In this document: piece after piece, positions 25,819 to 64,000 of the stretch
Layout: every line of letters begins with the position of its first letter
Numbering within the stretch: the stretch's first letter is position 1
Origin: a virus
Direction: 5' to 3' (one strand)
Length of the DNA: 64,000 bases
IMG/VR virus record: IMGVR_UViG_3300050821_018287
Location: 1 to 64,000 of that record
Program-made: the position numbers and the translations under genes
Notes under the pieces: generated by a model
Database searches by the model: none
The model's input: the letters and a program-made list of their open reading frames with translations, nothing else
Told to the model about the DNA's origin: nothing

Positions 25819-25890
25819 TTGCGCCGGGGGGAGTTGAACCCCCTACCTCCGGGTTATGAGCCCAGCGAGCTACCGTTGCTCCACGGCACG
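25819..25890 (-). tRNA. initiator tRNA-fMet (CAT)
   Basis: CGTGCCG-TGGAGCAACGGTAGCTCG-CTGGG CTCATAA CCCGG-AGGTA-GGGGG TTCAACT CCCCC-CGGCGCA-A; C1:A72 mismatch and three G-C pairs in the anticodon stem; CCA not encoded. Confidence 0.95.
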
Positions 25891-34307: not shown

Positions 34308-34706
34308 CTACGCGGTCTGCCCGAGGAATACATCAACTGTGGTCACTTGACCAGCGAGTCGAGTGAGGCTCAGCGCCGTGTAGGGCACCGTGTGGGAAAT
34401 GAGGGCCAGGAATCCGTCCACAGGAATCACCTGAGAAGTGCCGTCCGCGCTCGTCAGCACCGCGTCGATCTTTAGGGAGGGCGACTTGATGATGATGATG
34501 TTGGCACCGCCGGGGGTCACCGTCCCCACCGCGCCGAAGGGAACCGCCTGCGGGCTGTCCGCGTTGAGCTGGAGCCCGGAGACGAGCTGTTTGGCGAGGA
34601 GTTGGTACTCCTCGTCGATCGGCGCGACGAGATCCGCGATCGTGGAAGGCGCGCCGACGTTGGGCGTCGTCGTGTAGCTTCCGGTGAGCGCGAAGTTGTC
34701 GGCCAT
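34308..34706 (-). CDS. structural protein
   Basis: Beta-rich; head module context. Confidence 0.6.
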   Translation of the reverse strand: MADNFALTGSYTTTPNVGAPSTIADLVAPIDEEYQLLAKQLVSGLQLNADSPQAVPFGAVGTVTPGGANIIIIKSPSLKIDAVLTSADGTSQVIPVDGFLALISHTVPYTALSLTRLAGQVTTVDVFLGQTA

Positions 34707-37339: not shown

Positions 37340-37990
37340 TCACAGCCCCGGGCATTCGTGCCCGATGCGATCTTGGAGACCTACCAGCGCCGGGTGGAAG
37401 TGGTGCTTCAGGGCTTCGTTGAACGCGCGAGCGCACCCCCACCCGTTCCGTCGACGCCACTTGAAGATCTCGTAGCCGGTCCGATCCTGCCCGTGGGAGC
37501 AATGAATTCCCACCCCCATCGAGCGGTAGAGGCTGATCAGCTCCTGAATCCGCTCGTCTTGAGCGGAGGACGGGCCCTGGACGTCCTGCTGCACGTCCTG
37601 AACGATGTTGGTCCCGTCGAAGGGTGGGATGGGGAGCTTGATGAGGGAGATCCCCGCCTCCACCGCCAGCTCGTCGCTCCCCTCGTCGTCGGAGTTGAGC
37701 TTGACGATGACGTGGACGTTGTAGTTGTCGTGGAGGTACTTCCACGGCTCCAGGCCCGCCTTCGGATCCGGCTGACCGAAGCGGACCACCGCCGGCTTCC
37801 CCGCGTCGCCCCACTCCACGACGTCGAGGTTGGGAACGCCGTGCACGTAGCGCATCGGGGAGCACGCGCCCAGAACCATCGCCAGTACCGCCACCCACCC
37901 CGTCAACCAGCGCGGGTGGAGATTGAACTCCGAGAAGATGCGCGCGTTTTCCAGCATGCTCAGCCCCAGTCGTCGATCCTTCGCCGTCAT
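37340..37990 (-). CDS. protein-tyrosine / dual-specificity phosphatase, probable lipoprotein
   Basis: HCSHGQDRTG CX5R loop; VLAMVLGAC lipobox-like segment; start uncertain. Confidence 0.85.
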   Translation of the reverse strand: MTAKDRRLGLSMLENARIFSEFNLHPRWLTGWVAVLAMVLGACSPMRYVHGVPNLDVVEWGDAGKPAVVRFGQPDPKAGLEPWKYLHDNYNVHVIVKLNSDDEGSDELAVEAGISLIKLPIPPFDGTNIVQDVQQDVQGPSSAQDERIQELISLYRSMGVGIHCSHGQDRTGYEIFKWRRRNGWGCARAFNEALKHHFHPALVGLQDRIGHECPGL

Positions 37991-38400
37991 CGCAAAGCCT
38001 CCAGGATGAACTTGAACCGCTCGGTGTCGTTGGGGAGGTTCTGGAGCCACTGGCGCACCGCCTCCGCGGACATCGGCGCCTTCTTCCACAGAGTCAGCTC
38101 GCAGTAGTTGGAGAGCTGCTCCAACGACGCCCGCGCCGGCTCTCCTGCCACCGCCACACCGATCGACGTGAGCGAGCCGGCCATCTGCCCGTCCGTCTCG
38201 ACGATCGCCTTGTACGCGTAGCCGAGCGTGTCGAGGCCGGCCTTGAACTTCAGCATCCGCTCCTTCGTGCCGACGAGGATGGTCGCGCGCTCGTCCTCGG
38301 TGGGACGCACAAAGGGTGCCTCTCGCGCCGCGTGGGCGAGCTGGGCCAAGAGCTGACCCCCGTTCAACTTGTCCCGGAGCACCGCAAAGAAAAACGTCAC
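37987..38400 (-). CDS. Pth2-like peptidyl-tRNA hydrolase
   Basis: FAVLRDKLNGGQLLAQLAHAA...ILV...ETDG....TSIGV matches the Pth2 pattern (xxR.Dl..G...AQ..HA ... E.D..T..G). Confidence 0.7.
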   Translation of the reverse strand: MTFFFAVLRDKLNGGQLLAQLAHAAREAPFVRPTEDERATILVGTKERMLKFKAGLDTLGYAYKAIVETDGQMAGSLTSIGVAVAGEPARASLEQLSNYCELTLWKKAPMSAEAVRQWLQNLPNDTERFKFILEALR

Positions 38401-39488
38401 AGGTCCACCTGCCTCCCCCCGCGCATCTCCCAGGCGGGAACTCCCCACCCCGGGCGCCAAGGCGCGAGAATGGCCCTATCATTGGGCCGGTTCGGGGGAA
38501 AAAGCCACTGCTTCCCCCACATCTTCGTGTCCACGTCCGGATCCCTCGGCATCGTGAACGAGACGCCCGCCGGGACCGCCTGACCGTGCATGGCGATGGA
38601 GTCGGCCCCCACCCGGTCGTCGAGCGGAGCGTAGGTGGCGTCGTCCACGTGCTCGCTCCAGCGCGTACGCAAGTCCTCCAGCTCCTTCGCCGCCTCCACG
38701 AAACTGTCGTGATGCGATGCGTTGAAGGCCCAGGCCGTTTCCGTCCTGACGATGCGCTCCCCTTGCCACCACTCCGCCGCGGCCACCTCGGGGATCCGCG
38801 CGATGGCCTCTTCGGTGGTCTCCCCCGCCACCAGGGAGAGCGTGAGCTGATCGTGCACGTCCTCGAAGAGGCGCGTCCCCCACCGGGCCATCGACTTCCT
38901 GTGCATGTCGTCCAGCTCGGGCCGGCGCTTCTGGACGAGCGTCTGGAGCTTCACGGCCTCGTCGATTCGAAGGGGGACGGCGGCGCCGGTGAAGGTCTTC
39001 TCCAGCTTCCGCAAGTCCTTCGCGAAGGCTTCGATGGCTTCCGTCTGCGCCTCACGGGAGATGTCCCCCAGCTCTCCGGAAAGCTTCCGCGCGAGGAGCA
39101 CCTGGCCCTGTTTGATCTGCGCGAGCGCCACCTGGCGCTGGTAGGCGGTGAACGAATCCTTCATCCCGCTTCGCAGGACGGCGCGCAGCCGCGCCTCCAC
39201 CTCGCGGTACGCCTCGTCGTAGACCTTCTTCATCCGAGCCACCCCGCGGCGGTCCACGAGGCGATCCAACCGCGCGCGGTGCTCGTCCAGGACAGCTTCG
39301 TACGCTTTCGGCGCGTGGCCTTTGGCCGGCTTCAGCGCAGCCGCTGCCAGTTCGACGATCTGCCCGAGCCCGCCGCCCTGCGCGGCGCGGGTCTCGTCGA
39401 TCCACTTCTCAGCCGACTTGCGCGACGGGTGGTGGGAGGTGATCCACCCACCCGCCTTGTTCGCTACGCGCGCTTCGTACTTGTCCAC
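38397..39488 (-). CDS. minor head protein (Mu gpF / SPP1 gp7-like)
   Basis: ERIVRTETAWAFN, DDRV..DS..MHGQ, PPNRPNDR. Confidence 0.88.
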   Translation of the reverse strand: MDKYEARVANKAGGWITSHHPSRKSAEKWIDETRAAQGGGLGQIVELAAAALKPAKGHAPKAYEAVLDEHRARLDRLVDRRGVARMKKVYDEAYREVEARLRAVLRSGMKDSFTAYQRQVALAQIKQGQVLLARKLSGELGDISREAQTEAIEAFAKDLRKLEKTFTGAAVPLRIDEAVKLQTLVQKRRPELDDMHRKSMARWGTRLFEDVHDQLTLSLVAGETTEEAIARIPEVAAAEWWQGERIVRTETAWAFNASHHDSFVEAAKELEDLRTRWSEHVDDATYAPLDDRVGADSIAMHGQAVPAGVSFTMPRDPDVDTKMWGKQWLFPPNRPNDRAILAPWRPGWGVPAWEMRGGRQVDL

Positions 39489-57857: not shown

Positions 57858-58150
57858 CAGTCCACCGATGGATCCCCAAGCCGCCACCGCGCGCTCATGA
57901 TGGCGTCCTCCCGCTCCCGCTCCTTCGTTTCCTCCTCCACCCAATCCATTGCCGCTTCGACTGTGGTGAAGAGGCGCCGAGACGGCTCCCGACGCAAAGA
58001 AGGGTGCAGCCGGCCCTCGAAGCGCGGCATGCGCAGAAGCGACTTCGGATCCGAAACAGGCCAGACCGAGCCGACCGAGCCCGAGTATTGCACCGTCTCC
58101 GAAGCGACGAGGTAGCGCGCCTCCGGGTTGATCTGCCACTCCAGCTTCAT
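57857..58150 (-). CDS. array protein 2 (subfamily B)
   Basis: LEW; FTTVEAAMDWVE...MSARWRL. Confidence 0.7.
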   Translation of the reverse strand: MKLEWQINPEARYLVASETVQYSGSVGSVWPVSDPKSLLRMPRFEGRLHPSLRREPSRRLFTTVEAAMDWVEEETKEREREDAIMSARWRLGDPSVD

Positions 58151-58419
58151 GTTGGTGCCCCCAAGCGATCCCTCGCGTCCTCTGCCTTGATGACCAGCTC
58201 CGCCTCCGCCCGCGCCTCTTCGATCGTCTCGTACTCCTCGTCGAACATCCTCACCCGCCGAAGCCGGCCGCTGAGACAAAGCTTCCACTTCCCCTCCTGC
58301 GTCTTGAAGAAAGCGACGTTGAGGTCATGCCCGTTAACCTGCACTGGCCGGTCCGTCGGAAGGTACCAGCCCTGAAAGTACAACTCATCCTCCCCGAGGT
58401 AGACGAGCCCCGACGACAC
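58147..58419 (-). CDS. array protein 1 (subfamily B)
   Basis: YETIEEARAEAELVIKAEDARDRL. Confidence 0.7.
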   Translation of the reverse strand: MSSGLVYLGEDELYFQGWYLPTDRPVQVNGHDLNVAFFKTQEGKWKLCLSGRLRRVRMFDEEYETIEEARAEAELVIKAEDARDRLGAPT

Positions 58420-58437
58420 AAGGGAGCCTTGTTCGGG

Positions 58438-58971
58438 CTAGGGGGAAACGCCCCGCCAGATGACGTGGACGTTGGGGAAGGTGGCACAGTCGCGACCCAC
58501 CCCCAACGGGTTCCCCGGCGCCCCATGTGTAACGCGCCCCTTCAGGAATCGGAGCTGAGGCCCTCCGGCCAGCTCCCGGTAGGGCTCGATGTACTTGTGC
58601 CACCAGGCGCGATCCGTCCAGGAGGGGAGGTGCGCGACGACGAGCTTGCACCCGAGGCTCAGCTCGCGCATCGCCTTCTCCAACCACTCGCCGATGTTGG
58701 AGTAGGGCGGGTTGAGGAAAACGCGGTGGCCAACCCACGACTGGACGAGCCCGTTGTCCGCCTCTCCGTACCACCGTCCGATGAGCTGCGCACTGAAGCA
58801 CTCCGCCGAGGCGCACGGGTCCAACGTGAAGCGAAACTCGTCGTGGAGGGGAATGAGCACCTCGCGCGGAGTGAATTGGTAGTCGAGATCCGTCACCAAC
58901 GGGATCGCCGGCTCCAGGAGCGAGAGCTGCTCCCCCTTCAGGATCGGGCCAGGGTTTGCTGTGTCACCCAC
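58438..58971 (-). CDS. phage DNA N6-adenine methyltransferase
   Basis: TP...F.FTLDPCA, NGL..SW..VFLNPPYS, LP.WTD..WW, RFLKGR. Confidence 0.92.
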   Translation of the reverse strand: MGDTANPGPILKGEQLSLLEPAIPLVTDLDYQFTPREVLIPLHDEFRFTLDPCASAECFSAQLIGRWYGEADNGLVQSWVGHRVFLNPPYSNIGEWLEKAMRELSLGCKLVVAHLPSWTDRAWWHKYIEPYRELAGGPQLRFLKGRVTHGAPGNPLGVGRDCATFPNVHVIWRGVSP

Positions 58972-59168
58972 GCGACTGCCTCCTCAACAACGTCCTTCCG
59001 GTAGAGGATCTCCCTCGTCCCGTCATTCCCCCGGCGCGTCATCCTCATCGCCGACAGCTCCTCCGGGCTCATCCACGACTGCCGATACAACGCCGCTCGC
59101 AACGAGAAGACGCTGACCTCGTACACCGCCGCTGCAACCGCCAGCGTCATCCACTCGATTTCAGCCAT
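58938..59168 (-). CDS. small HTH / excisionase-like DNA-binding protein
   Basis: WMTLAVAAAVYEVSVFSLR...ILYRKDVV. Confidence 0.55.
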   Translation of the reverse strand: MAEIEWMTLAVAAAVYEVSVFSLRAALYRQSWMSPEELSAMRMTRRGNDGTREILYRKDVVEEAVAWVTQQTLARS

Positions 59169-59689
59169 GGCCTGACGATCGCCAAGAGGTCTTCCGGACT
59201 TTGGCCCGCGTTCAGCTCCAGCCGCCTCTCGAAAGTCTCGGCGAAGCGCGCGGATTTCGTCTTGCGGCCCTTCACCCAGGACGGATTCTGATTGCTGCCC
59301 CGACGCAACCGGCGCCGGTGCACCTCCTCCTCGTCCGCGAAAAGGAGTACGCACCTCAAGACCGTCGGTGGGCAGCTCAGCAGAACGTTGCGATTGTCGA
59401 AGTAGCGGACCACCTTCGCGTTGGAGAAGCGATCCCCGTCGAAGATGGTGAGCGTGCAACGCTGCGCGAGAAACTCCGACCAGAAGTCCAGCGCCTTCCC
59501 GACTCCGTTGTAGGGTACGGTGTCCGCGCCGTCGAAAGTCGCGCCCGTGTAATGGCCTCCGGCACAGACCGTAGGACCCACCGTCCACTTCGGCTTAGAG
59601 ACGATCGTCGAGTTGGACTCCAGGAGTCCCTTCACCAGCGTCGTCTTCCCCACGCCCGGCTCACCCACCACCCAGAGGATCTGGTTCAC
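59147..59689 (-). CDS. P-loop kinase (5-hydroxymethyluracil DNA kinase-like)
   Basis: GEPGVGKTT Walker A, GHY....FDGADT, FDGDRF, RR..RGSNQ..SWVKGR.TK. Confidence 0.8.
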   Translation of the reverse strand: MNQILWVVGEPGVGKTTLVKGLLESNSTIVSKPKWTVGPTVCAGGHYTGATFDGADTVPYNGVGKALDFWSEFLAQRCTLTIFDGDRFSNAKVVRYFDNRNVLLSCPPTVLRCVLLFADEEEVHRRRLRRGSNQNPSWVKGRKTKSARFAETFERRLELNAGQSPEDLLAIVRPWLKSSG

Positions 59690-60111
59690 GGTTGCCTCCG
59701 CCGGGAGTCGAAGCCCTGTTTGAAAGGAGACTTTCTACGTTCGTCCGGACCCGCCTTGAACGCTCCCGGCGACGCCTGCCGGCCACGATTTGCCGCCGAG
59801 ATCTTAGCCCGCGCCTCTGGTGAATGCTTTCGCCCGCGCTGCGCTGTGCTCATCCGCAGCCGCGTCTCCGGTCGAATGACCTTCCCCCGATGGTGGTGAC
59901 TCTGGTGGCAAGACCGGTGGCACAAAGCCCAATTGTTCGGCGTGTCGTTGTCGTGGTTGTGGTCCTTGTGGTGAACGACGGGCTCCAACGGATCGCGAAA
60001 GGGCGGGCCTACCTCCACGACTCCGCCGCAAAAGAAACAGACCCAAGGACCGAAGCCCATCGTTCGAAAGAACAGCCACCAACCCGAGAACGTATGCCGC
60101 TTACCGGACAA
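59686..60111 (-). CDS. HNH homing endonuclease with NUMOD3 repeats
   Basis: VHHKDHNHDNDTPNNWALCHRSCH; GRKHSPEARAKIS. Confidence 0.85.
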   Translation of the reverse strand: MSGKRHTFSGWWLFFRTMGFGPWVCFFCGGVVEVGPPFRDPLEPVVHHKDHNHDNDTPNNWALCHRSCHQSHHHRGKVIRPETRLRMSTAQRGRKHSPEARAKISAANRGRQASPGAFKAGPDERRKSPFKQGFDSRRRQP

Positions 60112-61030
60112 GGAGGGCTCCTTTGTCTCGGTAGACCTTGAGACGCTCAGAATCGACCCCTGACCAACCACCCAGCTCTCCGAGATAGTCCACAGGAAAC
60201 GATTCGAGCCGAGCCTGCTGCATACGGTCGCCACACTCAGCGACGTGGCTCATTTGGAGATCGATGTCCGTCCCGGAATAGTAATGCCCGCGACAGAGAG
60301 AGTTGAAGTCGCAAAGCGCGGTCTCGAATTGGTCGAGCCCGGAGAAGAGAACCGCCTTCAGCGCCTCAGCGTAAGCTTGCTTCTGGATGTCAGGATTCGC
60401 AAGACACTCCTGGATGGAAAGCCCGCACACCCGCGCGAGCCCCGCGTAAGGCCCCGTCTCCTCCCCACCGCGCGGTTCCCCAATGTCCGGAGCGACGATG
60501 AGCGCGCCGTGAACGTTTTTAAGAAGGTCCGACCACTTGTAGCTAGCCCAGCCCCCGTTGCCCGGGATCTGCTGAAAAGCGAAGCGCGCTCGGTCCCAAC
60601 CCTGAGTGCTCGAAACGCTGTCGCAACAAGCCTCCACCCACCGATCGAATTGTCCGCCTCGGGTGAAGTGGAAGGCGTAGTTGATGTGGAGGCGCGCCTT
60701 GTCGTTGCCGCGGAAGCCGCGCCGCTCCACTCCCGTCGGGAGACCCAAAAGTGGCTCGTGGATCTCCGTCGGCTCCGGATACTTCGTCCAAACGATCTCC
60801 GCCGAACGGAGGTTGTAGAAGGTGACGTAGAGGAACGTCCTCCACAGCGCGGTGTTCAGCGGAAGCTTCTCCAGTTCGTAGAGCCGGCGCAGCACCGGAT
60901 ACGTCGGGTCCAAGTCGCCTGACCAGAGCTGCGTCTTGGAGAAAGTGCAGAAGTCGACCCACAAATGCTCACGCGTGATCGCTCGCTCGCCGAAGAAGAC
61001 AAACTGCTTCCCCTTGTCGGCCATCGGCAT
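60101..61030 (-). CDS. amino acid:DNA transferase (aGPT-Pplase / HhH-glycosylase-like)
   Basis: DLDPTY, Y..FYN, ERRGFRG, IPGNGGWASYKWSDLL (HhH), ETALCDF, GHYYSGTDID. Confidence 0.8.
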   Translation of the reverse strand: MPMADKGKQFVFFGERAITREHLWVDFCTFSKTQLWSGDLDPTYPVLRRLYELEKLPLNTALWRTFLYVTFYNLRSAEIVWTKYPEPTEIHEPLLGLPTGVERRGFRGNDKARLHINYAFHFTRGGQFDRWVEACCDSVSSTQGWDRARFAFQQIPGNGGWASYKWSDLLKNVHGALIVAPDIGEPRGGEETGPYAGLARVCGLSIQECLANPDIQKQAYAEALKAVLFSGLDQFETALCDFNSLCRGHYYSGTDIDLQMSHVAECGDRMQQARLESFPVDYLGELGGWSGVDSERLKVYRDKGALLVR

Positions 61031-61842
61031 CACGGCTTCTTGCCTCGCTTCTCGGAGCGGATCGTACCCAGTCTCCGCGCCCGGTCCAACTCCTCGGCCG
61101 GCGACTGGCAATGGCACATCCCCCGAAGCGAGTAGAAAACGACGGTGTAACGGTAGGAGCGCGGGGAGAGACTCCGGATGGGTGTCACCCCGTGGAGGAG
61201 GGAAGACCCGTCGAAGAGGATGAGCGAGCCGGGAATGAACTTGAAACCAATGCCGAGCTGAGGCACCGCGAGGTGCCCGCCGTCAATGTCCTTCGTGAAG
61301 GCAAACATCGCACTCCAGAAGCCCGGGAAGTTGCCCGCGTCGCGGTGGTAATAGAGCTGGTTGTTCCAGTTTGCGATCCCCGAGGTGTAGATGCTCCCCG
61401 GTAGCACCCACCCCGGCTGCACCTTCTCCCAAATGAGCTGGGCCTGCGCCACGTACTGCTCCGGCACCTCCTTCTCAAAGTACCGGGAGGCGAGCGACGC
61501 GAGAGAGCAGATCTTCGCATGCGCCTCCGGGTTCTCCATCGCCACCACCGAGCAATAGCAGTAGTCCTGGCGCAGAGGATTGCGGGGCATGAAGCCCACG
61601 GTCCTGTCCTGGTGTCGCAGACCCGACGTCCGGTAGGCGCGGTGGTAGCGAAGCGCTTGAAACGCCTCCACCATCCCCGAAAGGTTTTCTTCCGGCTGGA
61701 GGTAGGCGATGCGGAGGGTGTTCTCCTCGTAGATGAGGGTGGGCTTGTCGATGAGCACCGCGAAGTCTTGCTCATGCGCGGGGACCTTCCGCGCGAGCGC
61801 CTTCACGTCGACTTCAATTCGCTGGAGTCGTACGTGTTGCAT
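61030..61842 (-). CDS. 2-oxoglutarate/Fe(II) dioxygenase, TET/JBP-like
   Basis: TSGIAN.N..L.YHRDAGN (HxD), LHGVTPI (His), RYTVVFY (Arg). Confidence 0.88.
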   Translation of the reverse strand: MQHVRLQRIEVDVKALARKVPAHEQDFAVLIDKPTLIYEENTLRIAYLQPEENLSGMVEAFQALRYHRAYRTSGLRHQDRTVGFMPRNPLRQDYCYCSVVAMENPEAHAKICSLASLASRYFEKEVPEQYVAQAQLIWEKVQPGWVLPGSIYTSGIANWNNQLYYHRDAGNFPGFWSAMFAFTKDIDGGHLAVPQLGIGFKFIPGSLILFDGSSLLHGVTPIRSLSPRSYRYTVVFYSLRGMCHCQSPAEELDRARRLGTIRSEKRGKKP

Positions 61843-62473
61843 CGAACAAGTCCAGCAGCTTGAGGACGGCCTCGGTATGGCTCTGGACCCCATGGGCTTC
61901 CATCACCGCTTTCAGCCGCGCCAACGCCACGTCATAGGCCGCACCCTCGAAGTAGAGGACGACTTGCTTGATGTTGGCGGAGAGAAAACCCGGGAGAAGC
62001 TCCGCCGGAGTCGCCCCCACCTCCGTCTTCGGAGGCTCCACCGAGCGGAGGAGCGCGTCCACATCCGTCGGCTCGTAGCCAGTGCCAGCGAGGAGATCCC
62101 CCGTGTTGAGCCGGCCCAGCATCTCCGCCAGCGCCTTCTCGTCCCACCCGCCGACCTCGGTGAGCCGGTTGGAGGCGATGACATACGCTTCGGCCTCGGT
62201 GTCGTCCTTCGAAGCCCACCCGGTCAGGACTGGAACGAACCACCGGCCGTCCCTCACCTCCACCCCCGCTGGCACCTCACCCCGCTTCTTCAGCTCCAGA
62301 AGCGCCTCCCGCCGGCCGTGCCCCGCCACCATCCGCCCCGTCCGCTGGTCCACCACGATCGGCTCGGTAAAGCCGAAGCGGCGAATGGAAGCCTGGATGT
62401 CGGCCTGTGCGTGAGTCTTCGGGTTGCGCTCGGCCGTCTTGAGCGAATCCAAGTCTGTCGCGACGATCTTCAT
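61814..62473 (-). CDS. ParB/Srx-like nuclease-domain protein
   Basis: NPKTH, SIRRFGFTEPIVVD, AGHGR, IASNRL.E..GWD. Confidence 0.88.
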   Translation of the reverse strand: MKIVATDLDSLKTAERNPKTHAQADIQASIRRFGFTEPIVVDQRTGRMVAGHGRREALLELKKRGEVPAGVEVRDGRWFVPVLTGWASKDDTEAEAYVIASNRLTEVGGWDEKALAEMLGRLNTGDLLAGTGYEPTDVDALLRSVEPPKTEVGATPAELLPGFLSANIKQVVLYFEGAAYDVALARLKAVMEAHGVQSHTEAVLKLLDLFDATRTTPAN

Positions 62474-64000
62474 GCTGCCCCCTGAAGTTGTCCGCCTTCA
62501 ATCCTCCACTTCACAGTGGGCCCGAGCTGGAGGCGGCCGGCAATGTAGTCGGAGTGGGTGATGACTACCACCGCCCGCTCCTTTGCGAGGTCCACCAGGA
62601 CCGCCGCCAGAGCGTCCTGCCCGTCCACGTAGAGCGAGTCAAACACCTCGTCGAAGAAGAGGGTGCCAGCGCCCAGGCCACCGGAGAGTGCGCCGAGAGC
62701 GAAGAGGAGCGCCACATCAATCCGCCGCCGCTCCCCCGCTGACGCGCCACGGTAGCCCTCCCCGCCGCCAGCACCCTCCACCTCCAAACTGATTGCATCC
62801 GTCACCCCACCCGTCTTCTTCTCGGTGTAGGACTTGAGGCGGACCGAGAGCGCCGGGACGGGGCCCGCCGCCGTGACGCGCGGGGCACCGGAGATCCGCG
62901 CGAGCCAGCCGTTGGCCGCCGCCTCGACTGCGCCGAGCGCCCTCCCGAGGATGTGTGCGCGCACCCCCTTCGTCCCCAAGACAACCTCCACCGCCCCCAA
63001 CTCCTGCAACGTCTTCTCCAGAGTACCCGCCTCGGTGTCCGCGTCAGCAAATTGCTGCTTTGTCTTTTTCAGATCCGCTTCGGCCTGGGCCAGAGCCCGG
63101 TACGCGCGGTCCAGCTCACCCTTCCGGCGAGCGTGCGCAGCCACCCCCGCCTCCGCGGAACGAATCCGCTCACGCAACTTCGCATGGCGCTCGTTGAGCG
63201 CGGCGAGAATCCCGTCCAGCTCCTTGAGCTGTTCGTCGATCTCCAGGACAGCCTCGACGCTCTTGGCCTGGGTCGCCTCAGCCTCCTTCTTCAGCTTCCC
63301 GATCGCCTGGACCAGATTCCCCCTGAGTTTCGCGGGAATCTCCTGCCCGCAGGCGGAACACGTGCCTGTGTCCCCAAGCTTCTGGAGCTGACGCTTGAGC
63401 GCGTCCATGTTGGCCTGAACGCCGCCGTCCGAGCTGCGCAGGTTCATCGCCTTCGAGTACTCCGCGCGCCGGCTCGCCTCCGTTTTGTCGATGGCCTTCT
63501 TCACCTCCGTCGCCTGCGTCTGAAGCGCGAGAGGAGATTCCGTCTCCTCATCCCCGAAACTAAGCGGCGGAACCGAGGCCCCGGTGACCGTCTCCGTGCA
63601 CTGAAGCACCGACCGCGCCGCACCCTTCACCCGCTCGTCGAGGATTGCGGCCTGACGCCGGCACTCGTCCCACTGTCGCGTCGCCGCCTTCAGATCTGTC
63701 CTACACTTCTCCAAGGCCACATCGAAGCGCCCGAGCTGGAGGAGCCCCTCCAGAAAACGCTTCCGCTCCGAGTCGGTGGCCTCAGTGAAGCGTGCCGCAT
63801 CCGACGAGCTGAACACGTGCCTCCAGCGCCAAGTCTCGAAGGAGCCGATCCGCTCCTCCAGGGCTTCCTGCGCCTTGGAGTTGGTTTCGTACTCCGCCGA
63901 GGGCCCGTCATTCGTCGACCAGTCCAGCGCGGATCTCCCGCCCGCAGTCCTCGTCCGCGTCACCCCCAACCCCTCCGCGAGGAGCCGGAGCATTCCCGCC
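62470..64000 (-). CDS. sbcC: SbcC/Rad50-like ATPase (5' end lies beyond the window)
   Basis: Coiled coil; CSAC zinc hook; signature SAGE; Walker B FFDEVFDSL; ITH. Confidence 0.9.
   Translation of the reverse strand, partial: AGMLRLLAEGLGVTRTRTAGGRSALDWSTNDGPSAEYETNSKAQEALEERIGSFETWRWRHVFSSSDAARFTEATDSERKRFLEGLLQLGRFDVALEKCRTDLKAATRQWDECRRQAAILDERVKGAARSVLQCTETVTGASVPPLSFGDEETESPLALQTQATEVKKAIDKTEASRRAEYSKAMNLRSSDGGVQANMDALKRQLQKLGDTGTCSACGQEIPAKLRGNLVQAIGKLKKEAEATQAKSVEAVLEIDEQLKELDGILAALNERHAKLRERIRSAEAGVAAHARRKGELDRAYRALAQAEADLKKTKQQFADADTEAGTLEKTLQELGAVEVVLGTKGVRAHILGRALGAVEAAANGWLARISGAPRVTAAGPVPALSVRLKSYTEKKTGGVTDAISLEVEGAGGGEGYRGASAGERRRIDVALLFALGALSGGLGAGTLFFDEVFDSLYVDGQDALAAVLVDLAKERAVVVITHSDYIAGRLQLGPTVKWRIEGGQLQGAA

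Follow-up and report, generated by a model that had tools for sequence, protein, structure and literature searches.

The stretch of DNA considered here, hereafter the window, corresponds to positions 1 to 64,000 of an IMG/VR virus record, a single contig of 92,257 bp that derives from a soil metagenome and represents an uncultured phage. Close to the right end of the window, the minus strand carries a cassette of co-oriented genes encoding, in the order of reading, a ParB-like protein, a TET/JBP dioxygenase (hereafter TET), an amino acid:DNA transferase (AADT, formerly aGPT-Pplase2) and a P-loop kinase, with an HNH endonuclease gene lying between the last two. All of these genes are present, match the expected families and have intact catalytic motifs. 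The cassette can be read as a minimal four-enzyme form of ParB-dependent TET/JBP (5mYOX clade C1) post-replicative thymine hypermodification, by which thymine in finished DNA would be oxidized to 5-hydroxymethyl-2'-deoxyuridine (5-hmdU), then phosphorylated and substituted by an amino acid. This kind of cassette has already been published; its only distinctive feature here is the presence of the HNH gene in a position where relatives carry tailoring genes.

The cassette and its enzymes

The genes of the cassette are tightly packed (Table 1). The stop of the upstream SbcC-like gene overlaps the ParB start by 4 nt, as read from the sequence, ParB and TET overlap by 29 nt, TET and AADT by 1-4 nt (GTGATG), and HNH and kinase by 4 nt (GTGA), while a gap of 40 nt separates AADT from HNH. 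AADT starts at ATG 61030 and HNH at ATG 60060. For TET, the ATG at 61842 is the most likely start, which gives a protein of 270 aa, as called in the database, and accords with the N-termini of homologues; the open reading frame (ORF) extends back to ATG 61893, and that start, taken in an earlier note on this DNA, is less likely. No promoter-like sites are seen in the region, and no terminator-like sites within the stretch from ParB to the kinase. The G+C content is 0.61-0.63 across TET, AADT, HNH and kinase and 0.66-0.67 in the flanking genes.

TET matches PF12851 with 43 bits (cut-off 34.9, E 3.6e-11), and a six-frame search of the genome recovers it as the sole Tet_JBP match (44.3 bits), which serves as a positive control for the searches described below. 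The Fe(II) triad H166-x-D168 and H217, together with the 2-oxoglutarate-binding R231, is invariant in 22 homologues. In the alignment with these homologues, C245 is followed by a conserved basic C-terminal stretch (EELxRxR...KR), which the homologues also have. Such a basic C-terminal tail is reported to be exclusive to ParB-dependent enzymes (O'Toole et al., PMC13229309). The protein is 31-32% identical to the ParB-adjacent TETs of Rhodococcus phage Tonitrus and of cluster-B mycobacteriophages, and 31-34% over the set of cultured actinophages. A single-sequence pattern search for TET in IMG/VR gave no result.

Regarding the origin of the hydroxymethyl group, six-frame searches of the whole 92,257-bp genome gave no match for a ThyA-like dUMP hydroxymethylase (PF00303), for ThyX (PF02511), for dCMP deaminase (PF00383) or for a C5-methyltransferase (PF00145). 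Control genomes gave matches for every one of these families, and the same method recovered the TET gene of the window. The earlier note had named a standard dUMP hydroxymethylase route as what would speak against its reading, and the genome check found none. This leaves the dioxygenase as the only source of the hydroxymethyl handle that is visible in the sequence, and thymine is its likely substrate. With a ParB gene adjoining TET upstream and no C5-methyltransferase in the genome, the locus has two of the features by which the ParB-dependent clade C1 is recognized, and TET is predicted to be a thymine C5-methyl hydroxylase acting on DNA.

The ParB-like protein, assigned through phrog_620, has no Pfam match at E<=0.1. 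Its N-terminal part is a ParB/Srx nucleotide-binding domain containing the motifs RNPK and GHGR; after a linker follows a helical C-terminal domain, which is conserved and (residues about 168-213) common to its closest homologues. Among 49 homologues, N17, H21, R32 and the G51-H52-G53-R54 box are invariant. A second ParB_N protein, with no dioxygenase adjoining, is encoded elsewhere in the genome (Table 1). The AlphaFold2 model of the cassette protein (pLDDT 89.4) matches, with a Foldseek probability of 1.00, the structures 6sdk, 7bnk (Myxococcus xanthus ParB), 7bm8 (Caulobacter crescentus ParB) and KorB, its best structural matches thus being the ParB proteins of Bacillus subtilis, M. xanthus and C. 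crescentus together with KorB. The top structural homologues of 5mYOX-associated ParBs are likewise M. xanthus and C. crescentus ParB (O'Toole et al., PMC13229309). In its ParB/Srx domain with a conserved GxxR box, as in these closest structures, the protein matches the 5mYOX-associated type, and by analogy it is predicted to activate the adjacent thymine dioxygenase. In the tested homologues, ParB is more than a neighbour of the dioxygenase and acts as its activator (PMC13229309).

AADT matches PF18724 with 34.9 bits (cut-off 26.2, E 1.7e-8) and belongs to a large metagenomic clade, with 145 homologues at E<=0.001, 38 of which were aligned (41-54% identical). A phmmer search of the protein against PDB sequences returned only noise; a profile of the clade then matched the solved AADTs 25qc (7e-15) and the PaMx11 gp46 entry 8z2m (3e-9). 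Residues D24, Y47, Y51, E92, W146, K150, E243, T244 and C247 of gp46 correspond to D41, Y68, Y72, E102, W161, K165, E236, T237 and C240 of the window's AADT, where E236 and C240, within ETALCDFN, are invariant in 39 sequences. The chemistry and the catalytic residues of AADTs have been established in relatives (PMC8989533, PMC11472151), and mutation of the catalytic Cys or of the nearby Glu abolishes activity in M6 gp51 and ViI gp247. AADT is predicted from its conserved residues to displace the phosphate of 5-phosphomethyl-dU with an amino-acid nucleophile.

The kinase matches PF18751 (Ploopntkinase3) with 29.4 bits (cut-off 27, E 6.9e-7) and has the Walker A motif GEPGVGKT. In 17 cassette-linked homologues, the Walker A residues G9, P11, G14 and K15 are invariant, as are G54, D56, G85 and R126, and R130 and Q134 are nearly so. 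Its AlphaFold2 model (pLDDT 93, pTM 0.90) has a fold like those of adenylate kinase, NRK1 and polynucleotide kinase. PF18751 is also matched by gp4 of Gordonia phage Wooper (9e-59), annotated as a '5-hmU DNA kinase'. Taken together, the family matches (PF12851, PF18724 and PF18751 above their cut-offs, ParB through phrog_620) and the conserved residues bear out what the earlier note had seen at the locus, namely co-oriented genes with intact motifs, an HNH gene among them and an N6-adenine methyltransferase nearby.

Table 1. Positions of the cassette genes and of other features mentioned in the text, as counted on the virus record (the window is positions 1 to 64,000).
Feature	Position	Strand	Size	Family match or motif
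SbcC-like ATPase	64188-62470 (runs past window end at 64000)	minus		phrog_77 2.2e-38; AAA_23 and SMC_N matches
ParB-like protein	62473-61814	minus	219 aa	phrog_620, E 1.9e-34
TET/JBP dioxygenase	61842-61030	minus	270 aa	PF12851
Amino acid:DNA transferase	61030-60101	minus	309 aa	PF18724
HNH-NUMOD3 endonuclease	60060-59686	minus	124 aa	PF07460, PF01844
P-loop kinase	59689-59147	minus	180 aa	PF18751
Dam-type N6-adenine methylase	58971-58438	minus	177 aa	PF05869 E 4.9e-15; NPPY motif
HNH_3 and AP2 protein	246-707	plus		HNH_3, AP2
tRNA-Met (CAT)	25819-25890			ARAGORN
tRNA-Pro (CGG)	34585-34682		98 nt	ARAGORN
ORF with Cys-phosphatase signature	37340-38482	minus		HCSHGQDRT
Radical SAM protein	64206-65177	minus	323 aa	CRLKCSFC; phrog_9298 2.7e-45
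Thymidylate (dTMP) kinase	66038-66709	minus		PF02223, 2.2e-24
SbcD-like protein	67930-69042			Metallophos
DNA polymerase fusion	72188-74737	minus	849 aa	uracil-DNA glycosylase domain (residues 49-184), 3'-5' exonuclease, family A polymerase
Second ParB_N protein	84332-84970	minus	212 aa	PF02195, 1.2e-12; phrog_498/620
DUF2201 metallopeptidase/VWA protein beside MoxR-type ATPase	88648-91480	minus		DUF2201, AAA_3

The tailoring slot in related cassettes and the genome around it

Forty-one IMG/VR loci with a related AADT were fetched and their partner genes mapped; homologues of the kinase are linked to AADT in 23 of them. The closest relative, L005 (a 94.3-kb contig), shows the arrangement SbcC-ParB-TET-AADT-[slot]-kinase-Dam with 40-52% protein identity. 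The adjacency of SbcC and ParB can also be found in L006 and L007, and homologues of the Dam-type gene, which in L005 likewise lies 3' of the kinase, are present in L016, L017 and L025. The SbcC-like ATPase is context outside the pathway, and the Dam-type methylase is a syntenic neighbour that is probably responsible for a separate modification.

What varies among these loci is the slot between AADT and the kinase. In L005, it holds a DAO-family FAD oxidase (PF01266, 1.7e-25), which aligns end to end with PaMx11 gp47 (24.5% identity over 302 aa, E 1e-10), the enzyme converting N-alpha-glycinylthymidine (N-alpha-GlyT) to 5-aminomethyl-dU (PMC11472151). In L007, L009-L013 and L027, it is occupied by a homologue of the 'fifth gene' of actinophage cassettes, a homologue that also follows AADT in L041, where no kinase was found. 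In L006, where the 222-aa protein upstream of TET is ParB-like, the slot is empty, so that a ParB-TET-AADT-kinase core occurs naturally. The slot of the window holds the HNH-NUMOD3 gene only.

The fifth gene, found in actinophage and in many metagenomic TET cassettes, encodes a conserved protein of about 290 aa with an N-terminal GxGxxG Rossmann motif (copies at L009:7891-8763, L010:7891-8778, L027:7870-8754, L007:7834-8556, L041:7905-8738 and, as Wooper gp5, L003:3054-3926). It has no detectable family and no relative in the PDB. That it might be an NGTO-like flavoenzyme was considered and rejected as unproven, as there is no PDB match, hhalign gives probabilities of 8% with PaMx11 gp47 and of 0.4% with the FAD protein of L005, and the likeness is limited to the GxGxxG N-terminus.

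The HNH protein matches PF07460 (NUMOD3, 3.1e-6), PF01844 (HNH, 2.3e-3) and phrog_1271, 314 and 338 (HNH or homing endonuclease), and its motif can be read in the translation as CxxC...HHKDHNxDN...N...CHxxCH. No homologue of it occurs in any of the 41 related loci. Searches with tblastn found no copy or remnant of the FAD oxidase or of the fifth gene anywhere in the window's genome, which has no DAO-family gene either. Most simply, the HNH-NUMOD3 gene is a homing endonuclease that now occupies the position of a tailoring gene. The genome has other free-standing HNH genes, as would suit a mobile homing endonuclease; one encodes the HNH_3 and AP2 protein (Table 1), and two more encode PF01844 proteins of the 0-53.4 kb set. 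In two other soil runs, contig pieces cross both HNH junctions with identical sequence, which makes three runs in all; the arrangement of the slot is stable in the sampled population. More widely, error-free fragments of positions 58000-64000 are present, at low depth and with partial coverage, in contigs of these two other soil metagenome runs, which belong to other studies dated to the same year; several soil samples thus contain this phage strain.

The genome has a G+C content of 66%, carries nearly all its genes on the minus strand and is rated 100% complete by CheckV. When the cassette was compared by megablast with 50,697 phage records, no match was obtained, and the portal protein is 27% identical to portals of Ralstonia and Komagataeibacter phages; the phage is without a cultured relative. 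In a profile search of genome contigs with AADT, one contig of a metagenome-assembled genome only (Candidatus Paceibacterota) was matched, giving no clue to the host. Upstream of the cassette, the phage encodes its own dTMP kinase and a DNA polymerase in which a uracil-DNA glycosylase (UDG) domain is fused to a 3'-5' exonuclease and a family A polymerase (PolA). UDG-PolA fusions are associated with phages having T-modified genomes (PMC13697223), and the two enzymes fit replication on ordinary dTTP.

Several other features of the genome can be mentioned (Table 1). An SbcD-like Metallophos protein is encoded between the genes for the dTMP kinase and the polymerase. Immediately upstream of the SbcC-like gene is a radical SAM gene that has a strong GGAGGG ribosome site and relatives in Marinitoga phages, among others. 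A DUF2201 metallopeptidase/VWA protein beside a MoxR-type AAA_3 ATPase is a pair unusual for a phage early region. Surrounded by structural genes and 22 kb away from the cassette, an ORF has a classical Cys-phosphatase signature, and one protein of the 0-53.4 kb set matches PF22785 (DSP-PTPase, 1.3e-5). Of the two tRNA genes called, the one for tRNA-Pro runs against the genes around it and is perhaps a false positive.

Comparison with known systems

Metavirome clusters in which TET_JBP takes the place of the dUMP hydroxymethylase beside a kinase and an aGPT-Pplase2 have been described previously, and formation of 5-hmdU in situ was proposed for them (Lee et al., 2021; PMC8989533). Clade C1 enzymes with a neighbouring ParB have since been found to oxidize T in DNA in a ParB-dependent manner, up to 25-35% of T in Escherichia coli with an NTR preference, the modification being partial and sequence-biased; P-loop kinases and AADTs are described as linked to the dioxygenases of this clade (O'Toole et al., PNAS 2026; PMC13229309). 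The earlier note had held such a gene combination to be predicted by computation only, which no longer applies, as ParB-dependent thymine oxidation has been shown (PMC13229309) and the cassette is annotated in cultured actinophages.

As judged from gene content, motifs and the ParB model, the window's cassette resembles the clusters of 5mYOX clade C1 (e.g., 5mYOX176/ParB176) in having a ParB-like gene directly upstream of TET/JBP and no C5-methyltransferase, in the nearby genes for a P-loop kinase and an AADT, in a ParB model like M. xanthus and C. crescentus ParB, and perhaps in the C-terminal extension of TET. Unlike many members of the clade, it lacks a GATase and other tailoring genes and has HNH instead.

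The annotations of Gordonia phage Wooper (genes 1-5) and of Rhodococcus phage Tonitrus show the order ParB-TET-AADT-kinase, and the announcement of Tonitrus describes a five-gene thymidine hypermodification system (PMC11955845). In Mycobacterium phages Phelemich and Reprobate, homologues of AADT and the kinase can be found close to the left end of the genome, and cluster-B mycobacteriophages carry related genes. These cultured actinophages share with the window the gene order, the overlapping stops and starts, an AADT that is 33-36% identical and a PF18751 kinase. However, their cassettes lie at the left end of the genome, directly beside the terminase in Wooper and with several genes between in Tonitrus, whereas that of the window is placed inside the replication and recombination module, after the SbcC-like gene. 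They also carry the conserved fifth gene after the kinase, whereas the window phage lacks it and has HNH.

In Pseudomonas phage PaMx11, gp46-gp49 are a glycine:DNA transferase, an FAD-dependent N-alpha-GlyT oxidase/lyase, an acetyltransferase and a 5-hmdU DNA kinase (PMC8989533, PMC11472151). The catalytic Glu-Thr-x2-Cys and Trp-x3-Lys of AADT and the order AADT-[tailoring]-kinase are common to PaMx11 and the window, and in the related cassette L005 a gp47-like FAD oxidase fills the tailoring position. In PaMx11, 5-hmdU arises in the nucleotide pool by way of the ThyA-like hydroxymethylase gp51, whereas the window phage has no such enzyme and has a predicted DNA dioxygenase instead. It also lacks the FAD oxidase and the acetyltransferase, and its kinase is of the PF18751 type, whereas that of PaMx11 weakly matches PF18748 and has a PF18723 helical partner.

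In the base J system of kinetoplastids, JBP1/2 oxidize thymine in finished DNA, which is followed by glucosylation, and JBP needs no ParB partner. The window's cassette would share with it the TET/JBP oxidation of thymine in finished DNA and the subsequent derivatization of the hydroxymethyl group. The second step differs, being glucosylation in base J and, as predicted, phosphorylation and amino-acid substitution here.

Proposed route, end product and alternatives

The reading to which we give high confidence is that T in DNA is oxidized to 5-hmdU with the help of ParB, that the product is phosphorylated and that an amino-acid nucleophile then displaces the phosphate. Replication would proceed with ordinary dTTP, using the phage's dTMP kinase and UDG-exonuclease-PolA polymerase. 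The ParB-like protein would then enable the Fe(II)/2-oxoglutarate dioxygenase to hydroxylate, in double-stranded DNA, the C5-methyl group of some of the thymines, which would become 5-hmdU, as has been shown for homologous pairs. In the next step, suggested by conserved gene linkage only, the PF18751 kinase would phosphorylate the hydroxymethyl group to yield 5-phosphomethyl-dU. Finally, Cys240 of AADT would attack C6, helped by Glu236, Thr237 and a metal ion, the phosphate would be expelled to leave an exocyclic methylene, and an amino-acid nucleophile would add to it; this mechanism is established for M6 gp51, ViI gp247 and PaMx11 gp46, and its residues are conserved in the window's AADT. 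The Dam-type methylase would add N6-methyladenine independently. The modification would likely serve in protection against host nucleases or in sequence-selective marking of phage DNA. The earlier note had put forward that the dioxygenase makes the hydroxymethyl group on DNA and that phosphorylation and substitution follow; this gains support from the four confirmed families and from the lack of a hydroxymethylase.

Regarding the end product, no family of pyridoxal-phosphate enzyme, acetyltransferase, GATase or glycosyltransferase was found in Pfam scans of 86 predicted proteins. Because the genome has no recognized tailoring enzyme, the AADT product is probably the final base, and a known type of AADT product is to be expected; the earlier note's 'chemically new' adduct thus finds no support. 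Untailored N-alpha-GlyT, for which a nominal mass of 315 u has been given (PMC8989533), is the best guess from sequence, held with well under even confidence, because AADT is 50% identical to one that is paired with an NGTO-like oxidase and the tailoring genes are absent. It is also conceivable, if doubtful, that the natural final base of this phage is N-alpha-GlyT or a different free amino-acid adduct, which has so far been seen only as an intermediate of the M6 and PaMx11 pathways, and that it is made fully post-replicatively on a sequence-selected subset of T, an HNH homing endonuclease having replaced an FAD oxidase. If true, this would be a natural case of homing-endonuclease traffic altering phage DNA chemistry.

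Several observations weigh against this reading of the route and of its product. Neither the window's kinase nor the genome matches PF18748 (HMUDK_HMUD1) or PF18723, while the characterized 5-hmdU DNA kinase of PaMx11, gp49, weakly matches PF18748 and PaMx11 gp50 matches PF18723; the kinase thus falls, by its sequence, outside the family of the tested 5-hmdU DNA kinases (M6 gp54 and PaMx11 gp49). Because it belongs to PF18751 and not to PF18748, we infer its substrate from linkage and not from family membership, and it may phosphorylate 5-hmdU in DNA. D41, W161 and K165, the equivalents of glycine-contacting residues, are kept in AADT but are invariant across the whole clade, so that donor specificity is unreadable from its sequence. 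Neither a modified nucleoside nor the final base is reported in the searchable literature for this or any cassette combining TET, kinase and AADT. The scan for tailoring families covered predicted proteins, which leaves room for small or miscalled ORFs. Finally, the record is linear and without terminal repeats, so that a gene could conceivably be missing from it.

The radical SAM gene, two genes upstream of the cassette with only the SbcC-like gene between it and ParB, could tailor the adduct and is a further point of this kind. It gives rise to the improbable alternative that the route runs as proposed but that genes not recognized as tailoring genes, this one for example, modify the base further, the adduct then differing chemically from known AADT products. 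The thymidine pathway of M6 does use a radical SAM isomerase (PMC8989533), and many proteins of the genome have no family assignment. However, apart from the CxxxCxxC motif, the radical SAM protein is not similar to M6 gp53, and its assignment as an isomerase of the gp53 type was rejected; no homologue occurs in any of the 41 AADT loci, L005 included; and the relatives of this protein in Clostridium and Bacteroides phages belong to replication modules with no thymidine-modification genes nearby, further matches being found in records of viruses assigned to archaeal hosts (Methanomassiliicoccales). Being unrelated to the M6 isomerase, absent from related cassettes and related to genes in the replication modules of unrelated phages, the radical SAM gene is probably independent of the cassette.

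The HNH gene lies in the exact slot of the L005 FAD oxidase and of the conserved fifth gene of many relatives, and TET, AADT, HNH and kinase have a lower G+C content than their flanks. Both facts would suit a cassette that is decaying or partly functional, where HNH has taken the place of a tailoring gene and kinase expression may suffer from it, leaving DNA with only 5-hmdU, with little adduct or with nothing. This is very improbable, as the four enzyme genes are full length and keep every invariant residue, the overlap of the HNH stop with the kinase start preserves translational coupling, the core with an empty slot is natural in L006, and the sequence, including both HNH junctions, is identical in three soil runs. 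The TET/JBP family also includes 5-methylcytosine (5mC) oxidases, and the dioxygenase could act on 5mC, a cytosine adduct being built from methylation supplied by the host. In vitro, the tested phage T-dioxygenases oxidize 5mC too (PMC13229309). The chance of this is nevertheless close to negligible: the six-frame search found no C5-methyltransferase in the genome, the closest TET relatives are of the ParB-adjacent type assigned to thymine by O'Toole et al. (PMC13229309), and the characterized AADTs and kinases of the system act on 5-hmdU derivatives (PMC8989533).

The preferred reading, oxidation of thymine in DNA followed by phosphorylation and amino-acid substitution, makes the cassette an ordinary minimal member of a published class and reveals no new principle. 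With it, a system annotated elsewhere mostly in actinophages gains a soil phage that has no cultured relatives. The field of fully post-replicative thymine hypermodification has opened only recently, the ParB-assisted oxidation being the one step shown so far, and this minimal four-enzyme cassette would provide a small and clean construct with which the whole route could be rebuilt and PF18751 kinases could be tried on 5-hmdU in DNA.

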